DNA of 46,471 bases from a virus (lineage: Duplodnaviria > Heunggongvirae > Uroviricota > Caudoviricetes): the IMG/VR virus record IMGVR_UViG_2606217103_000006; one strand, given 5' to 3'. Position 1 is the stretch's first letter; each line of letters begins with the position of its first letter. The notes under the pieces are model-generated. The model had not been told where the DNA came from. It searched no databases and saw nothing but the letters and a program-made list of their open reading frames with translations. This document shows, piece after piece, positions 1,286 through 32,020 of the stretch. The translations under genes were made by a program, and so were the position numbers.

Positions 1286-1500
1286 AACCGCAGCACGTTC
1301 TTGCTTAAGACGTGCTGCGGCATAATCCCAATGATTACTCCCTGACAGGATTTGCAGGCCACTCAATATCAGGTGCAGTTGATGTATCAACACGGTTCAG
1401 CAACACCCGATACTTTTTCCAGGCTTCCAGCAATGAGGTTTCTTCCTCCGTTGCAATTTCCAGATCTGCAGCATCCTGAAGCGGCGCAATATGCTCACTG
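1286..1500. repeat. direct repeat copy 2 (3' end of intact tfa and downstream 11-bp-stem hairpin ccgcagcacgt/acgtgctgcgg)
   Basis: Matches 236-451. Confidence 0.7.
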
Positions 1501-1919
1501 GCTACCTGCATCAGGTTGTTTTTTGTTTCTTCCGCTTCCCGTATCCGAAACAGTTTTTCTGCTTCTTCATCTTTCACCCAGGATGTGCCGTTCCACTTCT
1601 GAAACTCCCCTTCCGGGGATAACCAGGTGACATTTTCCGGTAATGAGCCGAGTTCAGAAATAAATAACGCGTCGCCGGAAGCCACGTCATAAACCGTTTT
1701 ACCCCGATGATCTTCAACGAGATGCCACGATGACTCATCACTGTTGAAAACAGCCACGAAACCAGCCGGAATATCTGGCGGTGCAATATAGGTACTGTTT
1801 GCAGGCAGACCTGTATGAGGTGGAATATATGCGTCACCGTCACCAATAAATTCATTAGTTCCGGCCAGCAGATTATAAATTTTTATGGTCCGTGGTTGTT
1901 CACTCATTCTGAATGCCAT
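1335..1919 (-). CDS. tfa: tail fibre assembly protein
   Basis: 194 aa; immediately downstream of and overlapping stf (ATGA junction at 1919); lambda Tfa-like C-terminus. Confidence 0.85.
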
Positions 1920-30749: not shown

Positions 30750-30994
30750 CTGAAAAATGATTCTTTAAAATACCTGACATGTAATACAGAAAAAAAACAA
30801 AACCATACCTTAAATAAAAACCTCATCATCAAGCAGATATGCATGGATAAACTACAAGACGAGATATAAACCACCCTGCATTTAAATAAACAATAAACAA
30901 CATCAGAAAAATAATTCTGCTCTATGGTTTACAATCAAAAATATCATTTATACTTTTCAGAACATCACCAGCAAGGCATAAACAAGGAAACTAA

Positions 30995-31330
30995 ATGAAG
31001 TGGATTGTGATTGATACAGTTATCCAGCCATCATGCGGAATATCTTTTTCAGTCATATGGAGTAAAATAAAATTAATAATCTGGTATCAATCGGATGCTT
31101 TCTTACCTCCTGAAAGTATATTTACACTGACTCACACAGGCATCATGCTCAATAACAAAGTGCTACCTGTAACCATTTACAACGTAGTGCCATTCAATAA
31201 AACATTCTGGAATTTAATCAAAAACAGCCAGGAATGCCCTACAAATACAGATAACGTATTGAATGAATGCTTTAATAACCGTTGCACTCTGCAAATATGT
31301 CCTTATGGACTAAAACAACAAAGTCCATAA
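30995..31330 (+). CDS. hypothetical Cys-rich small protein (111 aa), AT-rich cargo
   Basis: RBS AGGAAA 6 nt upstream; 6 Cys; opposite strand to late genes; no recognised family. Confidence 0.4.
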
Positions 31331-31365
31331 GGAGTTTACTCACATCTGACAAAATCAATATAAAC

Positions 31366-31551
31366 AGCCCCTCCGGAGAGGGGCTGGAGAGTGGCGCTAT
31401 GTGCCATTGCATGGTGCCGGGTGCCTCCCGGTGAATTCAGTACCAGCACCTGAATCCGCGATTATCCCATATACCTACTCGCTGATTGCCCCTCCGCACA
31501 GGGGGATTCACCATGCGAAATTTTTTAACAAACTTCCCGCTGGCCAGACAA
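31366..31551 (-). repeat. repeat unit 1: candidate sRNA gene (promoter-like TTGTCT/TTAAAA, ~108-nt structured domain 31409-31516, terminator hairpin 31366-31385)
   Basis: Perfect 8-bp-stem hairpin AGCCCCTC-cgga-GAGGGGCT; domain closed by GCATGGTG/CACCATGC; internal hairpins conserved with unit 2. Confidence 0.55.
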
Positions 31552-31828
31552 TAATCGCCAGCCTGAATTATGAGCAACGTAGCATTTTACGGGAAAACTG
31601 TTTTCTGCAGTAAAAAGGCCCGCCGGAGCGAGCCTGGAAGGATAGCGGTCATGTGATGCCGGTTTCCCGGTAACTCAGCATCGGTATCTGAGTCAACGTT
31701 TTCTCTACTGGGTCATTTCCGATACGTTCCGCCTTCCGGCAGACTTTCATCACGTCAGAAAATATAGCACCCTGAGTAACAGGACAGTACTCAGAATTCA
31801 GGAAACTGTGACACATCCTGCACAGAAA

Positions 31829-32020
31829 AGCCCCTCCGGAGAGGGGCTGAAGTATAGCCTAATTTCTGTCTGTCGCATGGTGCCAGGTGCCTCCCGGTAA
31901 ATTCAGCCTGTCTACTGAATTTGCATGTTCTCTGGATCATACACTTTGCCAGATGCCCCGCCGCTGAGGGGGATTCACCATGCGATGTAATTTTTAACAA
32001 ATTCTCCGGCAGCCAGACAA
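31829..32020 (-). repeat. repeat unit 2: second copy of candidate sRNA gene (domain 31875-31983, terminator hairpin 31829-31848 followed by TTTTCTGT on minus strand)
   Basis: Same stems as unit 1 with different linker/loop sequences. Confidence 0.55.

Follow-up and report, generated by a model that had tools for sequence, protein, structure and literature searches.

The locus examined here raises the question of what is encoded by a set of tandem repeats in the late region of a 46,471-nucleotide stretch of DNA from a member of the Caudoviricetes (hereafter the window), and of what the encoded products might do. An initial annotation, made from the sequence alone, had described two units on the minus strand, each composed of a promoter-like element, a multi-hairpin domain and a terminator. 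It had interpreted them as structured non-coding RNA genes in which a variable internal linker recognizes the targets, and had placed them where Stx phages carry stxAB.

The tandem repeats belong to the STnc100 sRNA family

The covariance-model search recommended in the initial annotation identified two units, A and B, as full-length matches to the 206-position model of Rfam family RF02076 (STnc100). The matches span 31356-31544 for unit A and 31820-32013 for unit B and score 132.8 and 140.5 bits (E-values of 4.1e-29 and 4.4e-31, respectively, far outside chance), against a gathering score of 47 bits that we applied as the membership criterion to these two units and to a third one, M (see below). 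With our own model, R1, unit A scores 95.9 bits and unit B 89.0 bits.

The minimum-free-energy folds of both units (z-scores of -2.8 for A and -4.2 for B) give a closing stem, three conserved internal hairpins and a terminator. This is the STnc100 structure, a closing stem around conserved hairpins followed by a terminator hairpin, and the location of the units, the late region of an enterobacterial prophage, is also that of the family. In unit A, GCAUGGUG (31516-31509) pairs with CACCAUGC (31416-31409) to close a domain of 108 nt; the domain of unit B measures 109 nt, in agreement with the three-hairpin domain of ~108 nt first described. The core is laid out as closing stem P1, hairpin H1, short helix P2, hairpins H3 and H4, and a pseudoknot. 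Identity between A and B is 89-92% in the conserved blocks. It falls to 60-68% in the insert, the tail and the H3 hairpin (stem and loop), a value near the floor for short gapped alignments; the stems are thus conserved as originally noted, and the linkers, then called completely different, have diverged to about that floor.

In all, the tandem repeats are three adjacent copies of a known prophage sRNA family (STnc100/EcOnc27/PasD-like). The initial observation is real but ordinary because of this membership: STnc100 is a curated, experimentally detected family, and any Rfam-based annotator would label the copies present here. A and B share with the family its closing stem, hairpins, terminator and prophage context, and the locus differs in having three tandem units, the middle one of which scores below the cut-off.

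Table 1. Position of the predicted units, their promoter-like elements and the related core near dicB (coordinates are those of the window).
Feature	Position	Strand	Elements
Unit A promoter-like element (from sequence)	31523..31551	-	-35 TTGTCT 31551-31546, 17-nt spacer, -10 TTAAAA 31528-31523
Unit A predicted sRNA, ~157 nt	31360..31516	-	core 31516-31409, tail 31408-31387, terminator stem 31386-31365, then UUUAUAUU
Unit M promoter-like element (from sequence)	31761..31787	-	weak -35-like CTGTCC 31787-31782; TGn-extended -10 TGC-TATATT 31769-31761
Unit M, predicted, divergent, ~145 nt	31611..31755	-	core 31753-31653 closed by GUGAUG/CAUCAC, terminator stem 31635-31616, UUUUU
Unit B promoter-like element	31992..32020	-	-35 TTGTCT 32020-32015, 17-nt spacer, -10 TTAAAA 31997-31992
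Unit B predicted sRNA, ~159 nt	31825..31983	-	core 31983-31875 (109 nt), single-stranded tail 31874-31849, terminator stem 31848-31829, UUUUC
Structured core copy, dicF-dicB	44963..45092	+	between DicF (44894-44945) and the dicB start codon (45121)

Unit M, a divergent relative between A and B

The count of two units had to be corrected to three, as a divergent unit, M, was found at about 31611-31755. Unit M scores 30 bits with the Rfam STnc100 model (E-value of 3.4e-4), under the cut-off of 47, and 19.2 bits with R1 (E-value of 8.6e-4); it is therefore a divergent relative and not a member by score. It retains the closing stem, H1, H3, H4, the pseudoknot and the terminator through two-sided compensatory changes. 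The pseudoknot pairing is UAUCGG/CCGAUG (-6.9 kcal/mol) in unit M and AUCAGC/GCUGGU (-8.6 kcal/mol) in unit A. Forcing the closing stem P1 of unit M costs 1.1 kcal/mol over the minimum free energy, and in the constrained nested fold H1 and H4 are kept while the pseudoknot pairing replaces H3. In an orthologue of unit M (L011) the -10 block GGGTGCTATATTTTC is identical, the -35 region has diverged, and the differences preserve the structure.

Covariation defines a pseudoknotted core

Covariation over 100 and 90 diverse units supports P1, H3 and P2. Pair 6/148 of P1 occurs in the covariation alignment as GC (56) and AU (28), and pair 33/93 of P2 as GC (48), AU (25) and UA (8). At the base of H3, 99.7% of the cells are paired and all four pairs vary two-sidedly. 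The observed covariation score was reached in none of 500 shuffles, and slid controls were ~43% paired. H1 and H4 are both nearly invariant and their covariation is consequently uninformative. In the MAFFT alignments the loop columns of H3 are misaligned, and RNAalifold therefore failed to recover this hairpin; H3 and the pseudoknot were specified by hand and are backed by per-sequence tests. The stems are thus kept by compensatory changes across 90-100 relatives, as are the helices of unit M, and together with the Rfam matches this bears out the reading of the repeats as structured non-coding RNA genes.

In the pseudoknot, the first 6-8 nt of the linker after H1 covary with the H3 loop. At least five contiguous pairs can be formed in 78% of 82 distinct classes, versus 23-25% in two controls, and the compensatory changes in the helices, pseudoknot included, span ~20 genera. 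This element is apparently new; the Rfam consensus, as seen in the cmscan alignments, is drawn without it and counts the promoter region as RNA. Because of this covariation the beginning of the linker is pseudoknot-forming and structural, and the seed of the relative PasD lies in the 3' tail (see below), so the targeting role proposed for the internal linker finds no support.

The core is conserved far above the tails. CACCGGGAGGCACCCGGCACCA is 90-100% conserved though it lies outside the search pattern, and the conservation of GGUGAAUCCCCCU..GCGG.GGGGC, which the search pattern fixes, is built in. In units of the E. coli type, H1 and the terminator have identical 3' strands (GAGGGGC), and that of H1 could compete for the terminator 5' strand. 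A riboswitch or attenuator reading was nevertheless rejected: in other genera the terminators vary and H1 is invariant, so that the identity of H1 and terminator is not conserved.

Promoter and terminator signals

The promoter-like element TTGTCT-17 nt-TTAAAA was found on the minus strand of A and B exactly where it had been reported. A strict sigma-70 consensus scan did not call these minus-strand promoters because TTAAAA lacks the final T; read as TGn-TAAAAA, this sequence can be regarded as a putative extended -10. The -35 and -10 hexamers of A and B are weak, with 4/6 and 3-4/6 consensus matches, respectively. What the strict scan does call are two mirror images of these elements on the plus strand (TTAACA-16-GACAAT; 31525-31552 and 31994-32021), and no plus-strand terminator was found after them in the terminator scan. 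Across 138 distinct upstream sequences the family carries a -10 signal, TAnnnT, at -13 to -8 from TGGTG, plus a conserved T at -36. For PasD2, RNA-seq places the estimated 5' end on the homologous G of GCAUGGUG, which is relevant to the starts of A and B. According to a figure legend, the promoter regions of STnc100 in Salmonella LT2 show binding patterns of RpoD and RpoN (PMC10794520).

The terminator scan returned nine terminator-like sites against 1.8 expected, including those of A and B. The terminator hairpin followed by a T-rich tract, part of the initial description, was in this way recovered for both units, with the qualification that the nine-pair stem of unit A precedes a short, poor U-tract (UUUAUAUU). 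In 113 of the 169 family units a terminator lies at most 120 nt away, and the median tail is 27 nt. The units show one structural feature of the Hfq-dependent sRNA class, namely a Rho-independent terminator with a U-tail (its U-run short in A) and, before it, a single-stranded stretch, here of 17-26 nt.

A related core precedes dicB

The window contains a further copy of the core between dicF and dicB, which scores 63.3 bits with R1 (E-value of 3.6e-16 in the window) and a sub-threshold 34.6 bits with the Rfam STnc100 model. In this copy H4 is compensated (CCUGG/CCAGG) and the pseudoknot pairs CAGUUAA with UUAACUG (-7.3 kcal/mol). The same core is present in Qin of K-12 (L191:1953-2082; NC_000913.3 1649452-1649581). 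As in the tandem units, P1, H1, P2, H3, H4 and the pseudoknot can be recognized (63-66 bits with the core model); unlike them, this core is embedded in a polycistronic operon 28 nt before dicB, lacks its own terminator and is directly followed by the dicB ribosome-binding site. Its presence before dicB without a terminator suggests a role of the core that does not depend on an sRNA tail. No annotation of the dicF-dicB core as an RNA element was found in the literature searched.

The units occupy a late-operon slot of lambdoid prophages

The order of the genes around the units is Q, Mtase, tRNA-Met, tRNA-Arg, DUF3927, the units, SASA esterase and holin, with an iraM-like ORF as convergent neighbour. 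The host element is a non-Stx lambdoid prophage of E. coli, and the units sit in its late-operon "moron" slot. This slot is syntenic with that of stx, as had been proposed, but the units do not take the place of stxAB: Stx2 phage 24B, in whose record a cat cassette has taken the place of most of stxA/stxB, carries one unit between the stx locus and the esterase gene. An STnc100-type unit is a conserved neighbour of toxin genes and not a stand-in for stxAB.

Of 5426 complete E. coli genomes, 655 carry the same block; one strain with this prophage is CP048330 (99.6% identical). Members of the family were detected in at least 120 IMG/VR contigs and in 66 stretches that represent ~20 genera. The arrays comprise one to four units across phages and up to four in other enterobacteria; it is a trait of the family to form tandem arrays of 2-4 diverged units, in contrast to the dispersed copies described for PasD. 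What follows a unit differs from case to case: another unit, a convergent iraM-like gene, the esterase gene or the holin gene.

Relation to known sRNAs

Among the relatives of the units is EcOnc27/sRNA103 of the Stx2 phages Sp5 and 933W (Tree 2014, PMC4104026; Gruber and Sperandio 2015, as cited in PMC7873438). EcOnc27 was recovered by Hfq-CRAC (Hfq crosslinking) just 3' of stx2B in Stx2 phages and runs at ~235/247 nt on northern blots, the 247-nt species being destabilised in the absence of Hfq (PMC4104026). It belongs to the same family and occupies the slot between the late promoter and the esterase/lysis genes, and the tail of unit B, GACAGACAGAAAUUAGGCUAUACUUCA, resembles by eye its northern-probe region AGUAUACAGAGAUUAGGCAUAUACCAAG. 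In contrast to the present locus, which has three units and a convergent iraM-like gene and is devoid of stx and of an AsxR/AgvB partner, EcOnc27 occurs as one unit, with the anti-sRNA AsxR as its convergent partner. Because its size exceeds the ~160 nt predicted for the present units, transcription of some members of the family may begin further upstream or yield longer precursors that are then processed. STnc100 has 11 copies in EDL933, of which STnc100_4 was detected by northern blot and most show low ribosome coverage (PMC5331693). Members adjoining stx2 have been linked statistically to the risk of HUS (PMC12711010).

PasD1 and PasD2 of EPEC E2348/69 are RNAs of 172-173 nt whose abundance on northern blots is Hfq-dependent (Pearl Mizrahi 2021, PMC8550237; a further source on PasD, copies of which are reported to be dispersed and not tandem, is the 2026 preprint of Zhu, Shabalina and Storz). 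They share with the units the slot (Q, DUF3927, sRNA, SASA esterase, holin), the promoter layout, a 5' end at GCAUGGUG, the P1/H1/H3 architecture, and a tail with terminator, and differ by scoring 37.7-41.4 bits on STnc100 and by shortened H1 and H4. UGUGAG, the seed of PasD, is part of the 3' tail just ahead of the terminator, and the RIL-seq chimeras likewise come from this end of the RNA (the last ~50 nt); Hfq-dependent chimeras were obtained with many mRNAs that have a common motif complementary to the tail, and PasD RNAs end at the terminator, the 3' end of PasD2 being its U-run (PMC8550237). UGUGAG was not seen when the sequences of A, B and M were inspected by eye, and the alignment with PasD shows the shared scaffold only, without close similarity; judged by these two features, the units fall outside PasD.

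The statement in the initial annotation that regulatory or anti-sRNAs had been reported at the stx-syntenic slot proved correct (Tree 2014, PMC4104026), and the anti-sRNAs AgvB and AsxR were found in this same moron slot (PMC4104026, PMC7873438). Like the units, these RNAs lie in the lambdoid moron region and combine a variable with a conserved part. They differ in forming separate families (RF02702 and RF02703) of 51-60 nt, encoded on the opposite strand and convergent to their STnc100-type partner. Neither family had a match at the gathering score in the whole window or at E<=10 in 30800-32700, and an identity of the units with AgvB or AsxR was rejected. IpeX of DLP12, a prophage late-region sRNA that we took to be a possible relative, was also dropped, because no STnc100 match turned up in the Q-nmpC-lysis region of DLP12 in K-12.

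Proposed function and alternatives

We think it likely that A, M and B are three independently transcribed, Hfq-associated, trans-acting STnc100 sRNA genes in the moron slot. In the lysogen, each unit would have its own sigma-70 promoter of the extended -10 type; transcription would run from the base that opens the closing stem to the intrinsic terminator of that unit and give predicted RNAs of ~145-160 nt. Such an RNA would consist of a conserved 5' core of ~100-110 nt, a stable structural module, and of a variable single-stranded tail of ~20-27 nt before the terminator. EcOnc27 (Hfq-CRAC) and PasD (RIL-seq), the relatives from which we also infer transcription and the position of the seed, suggest by analogy that tail and terminator would form the Hfq-bound, target-pairing part. 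The tails differ among A, M and B, so each would address different host or phage RNAs.

Several observations fit this model less well. Near-invariant loops kept across ~20 genera and a pseudoknotted core of 100 nt are unusual for an Hfq-dependent sRNA, and base-pairing leaves the core unexplained. The promoter hexamers are weak and failed the strict scan, the U-tract of A is poor, the core before dicB is terminator-less and the PasD seed was not seen in A, B or M. A target search within the window with the three tails and the three inserts gave nothing above shuffled queries other than trivial self-antisense matches.

Some of these features would be accounted for if the conserved core were itself the functional unit, a cis-acting or protein-binding module acting on the 3' segment (for example a nuclease-resistant 5' cap, a platform recruiting a chaperone or RNA polymerase, or a processing signal), with the sRNAs as by-products or secondary trans-actors. 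The compact pseudoknotted fold, its conservation far above that of the tails, the terminator-less leader copy before dicB here and in K-12, and the constant location of the units within phage operons, where 87 nt separate the end of PasD2 from the esterase gene downstream, speak for such a role. We nonetheless consider it unlikely, since PasD RNAs stop at the terminator and the motif of their Hfq-dependent mRNA chimeras complements the tail, promoter-like and terminator signals flank most units, the downstream neighbours vary, and a conserved antiterminator pairing with the terminator was not found outside E. coli-type units. An idea put forward tentatively, and likewise held to be unlikely, is that the core is an autonomous pseudoknotted module reused by lambdoid phages in at least two settings, as 5' domain of tandem sRNAs and as dicB leader, with a role other than base-pairing.

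The remaining readings carry much less weight. The moron slot shared with AgvB and AsxR (PMC4104026, PMC7873438) and the pairing of a variable segment with a conserved scaffold would suit anti-sRNAs (sponges) whose variable segments mimic target sites and sequester core-genome sRNAs; this is improbable, as AgvB and AsxR are separate, short, convergent families undetected in the window even at the permissive threshold, the PasD partners among the RIL-seq table entries consulted are mRNAs, UTRs, and intergenic or antisense regions, and no sponge target emerged for the units. Even less credible is that the repeats are neutral DNA, recombination scars or mosaic boundary sequences carrying terminators by chance: they do lie at a mosaic junction and their number varies from one to four between phages, but the compensatory retention of helices and pseudoknot across ~20 genera requires selection at the RNA level, and the relatives are abundant Hfq-bound transcripts. 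We give practically no credence to translation of the repeats, which the initial annotation had named as the competing outcome, with ORFs 31401-31613 (+) and 31791-32060 (-) encoding small proteins of 70 and 89 aa. RefSeq sometimes calls hypothetical or pseudo CDSs antisense to units, but the two ORFs lie on opposite strands of homologous units and have no Pfam match, the insert lengths of 169 units are distributed 51/67/51 modulo 3 with no 3-nt periodicity, and conservation tracks base-pairing with compensatory changes; most EDL933 copies have low ribosome coverage (PMC5331693).

For the three units as trans-acting sRNA genes, a structural model with the seed in the tail, and not in the insert, would guide target searches for STnc100-type RNAs. 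If the core is a reusable module, it might act in cis on the sRNA tail or on the dicB ribosome-binding site, and tandem arrays might serve to diversify tails on a fixed scaffold. The dicF-dicB core, located in a well-studied spacer of K-12, offers a tractable system for probing the role of the core.

STnc100-type units on the minus strand

In a Rfam 15 scan of the window, two minus-strand units, A and B, matched STnc100 (RF02076) over its full length with 132.8 and 140.5 bits (E 4e-29 and 4e-31), the gathering score of this family being 47 bits. The initial annotation, made from the sequence alone, had described here two tandem units, each with promoter-like boxes, a closed domain and a terminator, and all of these elements are present as described, on two near-identical scaffolds (31356-32020). 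In both units the minimum-free-energy fold, whose z-score is -2.8 in A and -4.2 in B, shows the closing stem (P1), the three conserved hairpins (H1, H3 and H4) and the terminator, and a terminator scan returned 9 terminator-like sites against 1.8 expected, among them three evenly spaced on the minus strand. The stems are conserved and the linkers divergent, as had been noticed: units A and B are 89-92% identical in the conserved blocks and 60-68% identical in the insert (the variable linker after H1), the H3 hairpin and the tail (the single-stranded stretch before the terminator), the latter range being close to the floor for short gapped alignments. In E. coli-type units H1 (CCCCCUGUGCGGAGGGGC) has nearly the same sequence as the terminator (GCCCCUCUCCGGAGGGGC), so that an alternative pairing of the two is possible; this likeness is lineage-specific, since terminators differ in other genera. 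Plus-strand promoter-like sites mirror the minus-strand promoter regions of A and B, and antisense or divergent transcription could be driven from them.

The initial count was however one short. Between A and B lies a divergent unit, M, which matches Rfam STnc100 with 30 bits (E 3.4e-4, 31609-31784) and our own model of the STnc100-type core (core model) with 19.2 bits (E 8.6e-4). Compared with A and B, three positions of its closing stem, GUGAUG/CAUCAC, carry changes in both strands, and the unit has H1 (CUGCC/GGCGG), H3 (ACUCAG/CUGAGU), H4 (CCGG/CCGG), a terminator (GGCUCGC/GCGGGCC followed by UUUUU) and a TGn-extended -10 element (TGC-TATATT). In the orthologue of unit M found in an IMG/VR contig (L011) the -35 region has diverged, the -10 block is identical and the helix changes keep pairing (U·G to U-A, C-G to U·G). 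Forcing P1 in a constrained nested fold of unit M gave an energy only 1.1 kcal/mol above the minimum, although this fold retains H1 and H4 with the pseudoknot pairing in place of H3, and the value is therefore not that of the full family fold. Unit M is thus not a wreck, its features being preserved through paired changes, and because of this the locus is a three-unit array, B, M, A, which repeats about every 230-240 nt.

Features of the STnc100-type array, of related loci and of other RNA genes in the window
Feature	Coordinates	Strand	Remarks
Unit B promoter-like boxes	32020-32015; 31997-31992	-	-35 TTGTCT, 17-nt spacer, TTAAAA
Unit B closed domain	31983-31875	-	stem strands GCAUGGUG and CACCAUGC
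Unit B tail		-	GACAGACAGAAAUUAGGCUAUACUUCA; ~26 nt, between closed domain and terminator
Unit B terminator hairpin	31848-31829	-	AGCCCCUCUCCGGAGGGGCU, then UUUUC
Unit B H1 and terminator look-alike	31969-31952; 31847-31830
Unit M tail			AUGACCGCUAUCCUUCCA
Unit M pseudoknot	31724-31719 with 31687-31682	-	UAUCGG with CCGAUG
Unit A promoter-like boxes	31551-31546; 31528-31523	-	plan as in unit B
Unit A closed domain	31516-31409	-	108 nt
Unit A pseudoknot	31483-31477 with 31443-31437	-	AUCAGC with GCUGGU
Unit A tail			AAUGGCACAUAGCGCCACUCUCCA
Unit A terminator stem	31386-31365	-
Unit A H1 and terminator look-alike	31502-31485; 31384-31367
Promoter-like sites	31525-31552; 31994-32021	+	TTAACA-16-GACAAT
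iraM-like ORF	30995-31330	+	111 aa; convergent to unit A, ends 35 nt before its terminator stem
Related core	44963-45092	+	core model, 63.3 bits, E 3.6e-16
DicF RNA	44894-44945	+	77 bits
sok antitoxin RNA of hok/sok module	36961-37135	-	103 bits
IS009 RNA family	1378-1576	-	219 bits
Arrays in other loci	L007:2325-3353; L052:4377-5460; L178:5469-6549; L150:136-1622; L012:370-989; L137:6369-7004		three or four units (core model)

Covariation and tandem arrays across the family

Matches to the exact H1 pattern came from at least 120 contigs of IMG/VR and, among species-representative genomes of about 20 enterobacterial genera, from 66 stretches; together they gave 179 distinct units. The same pattern occurs in a 1625-bp contig of a Mucilaginibacter MAG (Bacteroidota; L147, JAYRLR010000027.1), which seems to reflect binning or contamination and not a true range outside Enterobacterales. 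Among 100 units less than 88% identical to one another, the specified structure was paired in 88% of cells (44-50% in slid controls) and the observed covariation was reached by 0 of 500 shuffles. The core alignment, trimmed and comprising 90 units, has GC in 56 and AU in 28 at P1 pair 6/148; at the base of H3, 99.7% of cells are paired and all four pairs show changes on both sides. RNAalifold adds a short helix, P2 (G-C, C-G, N-N'), which closes the variable insert and whose third pair is GC in 48, AU in 25 and UA in 8. H1 and H4 are uninformative on covariation because they are almost invariant; H1 was fixed by the search pattern, whereas H4 (CCGGGAGGCACCCGG) and the P1 3' strand are 90-100% conserved though outside it. 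The proposal of a structured phage sRNA is thus borne out by full-length family matches and by covariation.

Upstream of the units, 138 distinct flanks show a -10-like signal relative to TGGTG (T/A at -13, A at -12 in 77%, T at -8 in 62%) and a T at -36 in 71%. A strict hairpin-plus-T terminator follows within 120 nt in 113 of 169 units, with a median tail of 27 nt. Translation of the repeats had been raised as the alternative. Insert length modulo 3 is distributed 51/67/51 over 169 units and the ORFs overlapping the units had no Pfam match; the element is non-coding. RefSeq hypothetical or pseudogene CDSs lie antisense to STnc100/PasD units at L002:6575-6700, L189:2198-2439 and L190:2301-2699; they are probably false predictions at genes for non-coding RNA.

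Exact-pattern copies are spaced by about 257-267 nt (adjacent units) or by 462-490 nt, which is the spacing in the window, with a divergent unit in between. The core model revealed three- or four-unit arrays, with units about 250-265 nt apart, in viral contigs and in other enterobacterial genera (Superficieibacter, Leclercia), and the B-M-A layout also in L011, L027, L042 and L061. As arrays recur across contigs, tandem multiplication is a family trait, in contrast to the PasA and PasD copies, which are dispersed according to a 2026 preprint from the Storz laboratory (10.64898/2026.05.13.724894).

A pseudoknot in the linker and a candidate pairing region in the tail

The 6-8 nt after H1 are complementary to the H3 loop and both segments change together, not only in units A and M but also elsewhere in the family (CUGGUGU/ACACCGG, ACUGGAU/AUCCAGU, CUAGAC/GUCUAG); in unit B the pairing is weak (4 bp, UCUG with CAGG, -3.2 kcal/mol). 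In 78% of the 82 distinct linker/loop classes the linker forms at least 5 contiguous pairs with its own loop; the 12 nt of insert that come next do so in 23% and loops taken from other, unrelated classes in 25%, and the mean duplex energy was -7.1 kcal/mol against -1.8 and -3.2, respectively. In the MAFFT alignment pair 38/115 is CG in 20, UA in 20, AU in 16 and GC in 10, and pair 40/113 occurs as six pair types; in the family alignment (A4) the pseudoknot corresponds to columns 34-41 with 112-117. The consensus structure that cmscan prints for Rfam STnc100 lacks this pairing, and the Storz preprint makes no mention of a pseudoknot. Part of the supposedly free linker is therefore structural, and what remains of the insert, 15-60 nt, is hypervariable in length and sequence.

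The initial annotation took the linker for a targeting region, which is probably wrong, as its start pairs with the H3 loop and the PasD seed lies in the tail. The PasD target motif, CUCACA, is complementary to UGUGAG, a stretch of the tail immediately ahead of the terminator, and the PasD RIL-seq chimeric fragments fall in the last ~50 nt (PMC8550237). The northern probe for the sRNA EcOnc27 covers the tail too (PMC4104026). By analogy, the tail and not the insert would be the best candidate for target pairing in the units.

A rival explanation, that the STnc100-type core has a function of its own, is retained mainly because of a fourth core-model match in the window, which lies between DicF and dicB. 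It starts 18 nt past DicF, stops 28 nt ahead of the dicB start codon and has P1 (GAUGCGGUG with CACUGCAUC), H3, a compensated H4 (CCUGG/CCAGG) and a 7-bp pseudoknot (CAGUUAA with UUAACUG). Here as in K-12 this core precedes dicB without a terminator of its own, the dicB Shine-Dalgarno sequence coming next; the K-12 copy, in Qin, is at NC_000913.3 1649452-1649581 (L191:1953-2082; core model, 65.7 bits). Rfam STnc100 gave only 34.6 bits on the DicF-dicB core, below threshold, and the searched passages of a recent study on dicBF regulation do not mention it. GTGACT-16-TAAAGT, overlapping the DicF terminator, may be a promoter, as judged by eye.

Transcript ends

For PasD2 the 5' end has been estimated at the G of GCAUGGUG (NC_011601 741157), which follows its TTAAAA box by 7-8 nt; the 3' end is the terminator U-run. 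Transferred to the array, these ends predict RNAs of about 145 nt for M, 157 nt for A and 159 nt for B. EcOnc27 was reported to be larger, so that in some relatives transcription may begin further upstream, or the RNAs may derive from longer transcripts. A figure legend (PMC10794520) mentions binding patterns of RpoD and RpoN at the promoter regions of STnc100 in Salmonella LT2, in line with promoters of their own for the units.

Locus context and prevalence

Along the minus strand, RusA and Q (Pfam Antiterm) are followed by a small ORF, a DNA methylase, tRNA-Met, tRNA-Arg, a DUF3927 ORF, and B, M and A; then come the convergent, plus-strand iraM-like ORF, a SASA/DUF1737 esterase (NanS-p type) and a P21-type holin. 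From what is established on lambdoid late transcription, Q-modified polymerase would during induction have to pass the terminators of B, M and A before it reaches the esterase and lysis genes. PasD2 occupies the same slot (Q, DUF3927, PasD2, esterase, holin), and Stx2 phage 24B has a single core between the stx locus and the esterase gene, a cat cassette largely replacing stxA and stxB in this record. The suggested synteny with the stx locus thus holds for the slot, but the units do not take the place of the toxin genes, to which they are a conserved neighbour.

The 111-aa iraM-like ORF had no Pfam match and is labelled 'anti-adapter protein IraM' in a 99.6% identical RefSeq locus. Its transcript could run antisense into unit A because the hairpin at 31365-31386 has no plus-strand T-run. 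Of 5426 complete E. coli genomes, 655 have the 801-nt block with a coverage of at least 80%, and 2868 contain some part of it; in CP048330 it is 99.6% identical and carries no RNA annotation.

Relation to known sRNAs

STnc100 is among the sRNA families annotated most often (PMC9029176), and the 11 copies in EDL933 are all transcribed; ribosome coverage is low over most of them, and a northern blot confirmed one (PMC5331693). In Stx2 phages a copy situated 75 nt downstream of stx2B (PMC12370729) overlaps the Hfq-CRAC sRNA EcOnc27, or sRNA103 (PMC12711010; PMC7873438). EcOnc27 and the anti-sRNA AsxR form a convergent pair in the 'moron' site downstream of PR', and EcOnc27 gives northern species of ~235 and 247 nt, the latter destabilised without Hfq (Tree et al., PMC4104026). 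The EPEC sRNAs PasD1 and PasD2 have a common ancestor with STnc100 according to the Storz preprint; they match STnc100 with 37.7 and 41.4 bits and align with units A, B and M from promoter through core, so that at the sequence level this kinship is confirmed.

The family of these units has been curated and experimentally detected for years and this exact locus is common, so that the finding as such is known and its interest modest. Small additions are the pseudoknot, the arrays and the copy in the dicB leader, which could help to find the role of this abundant family.
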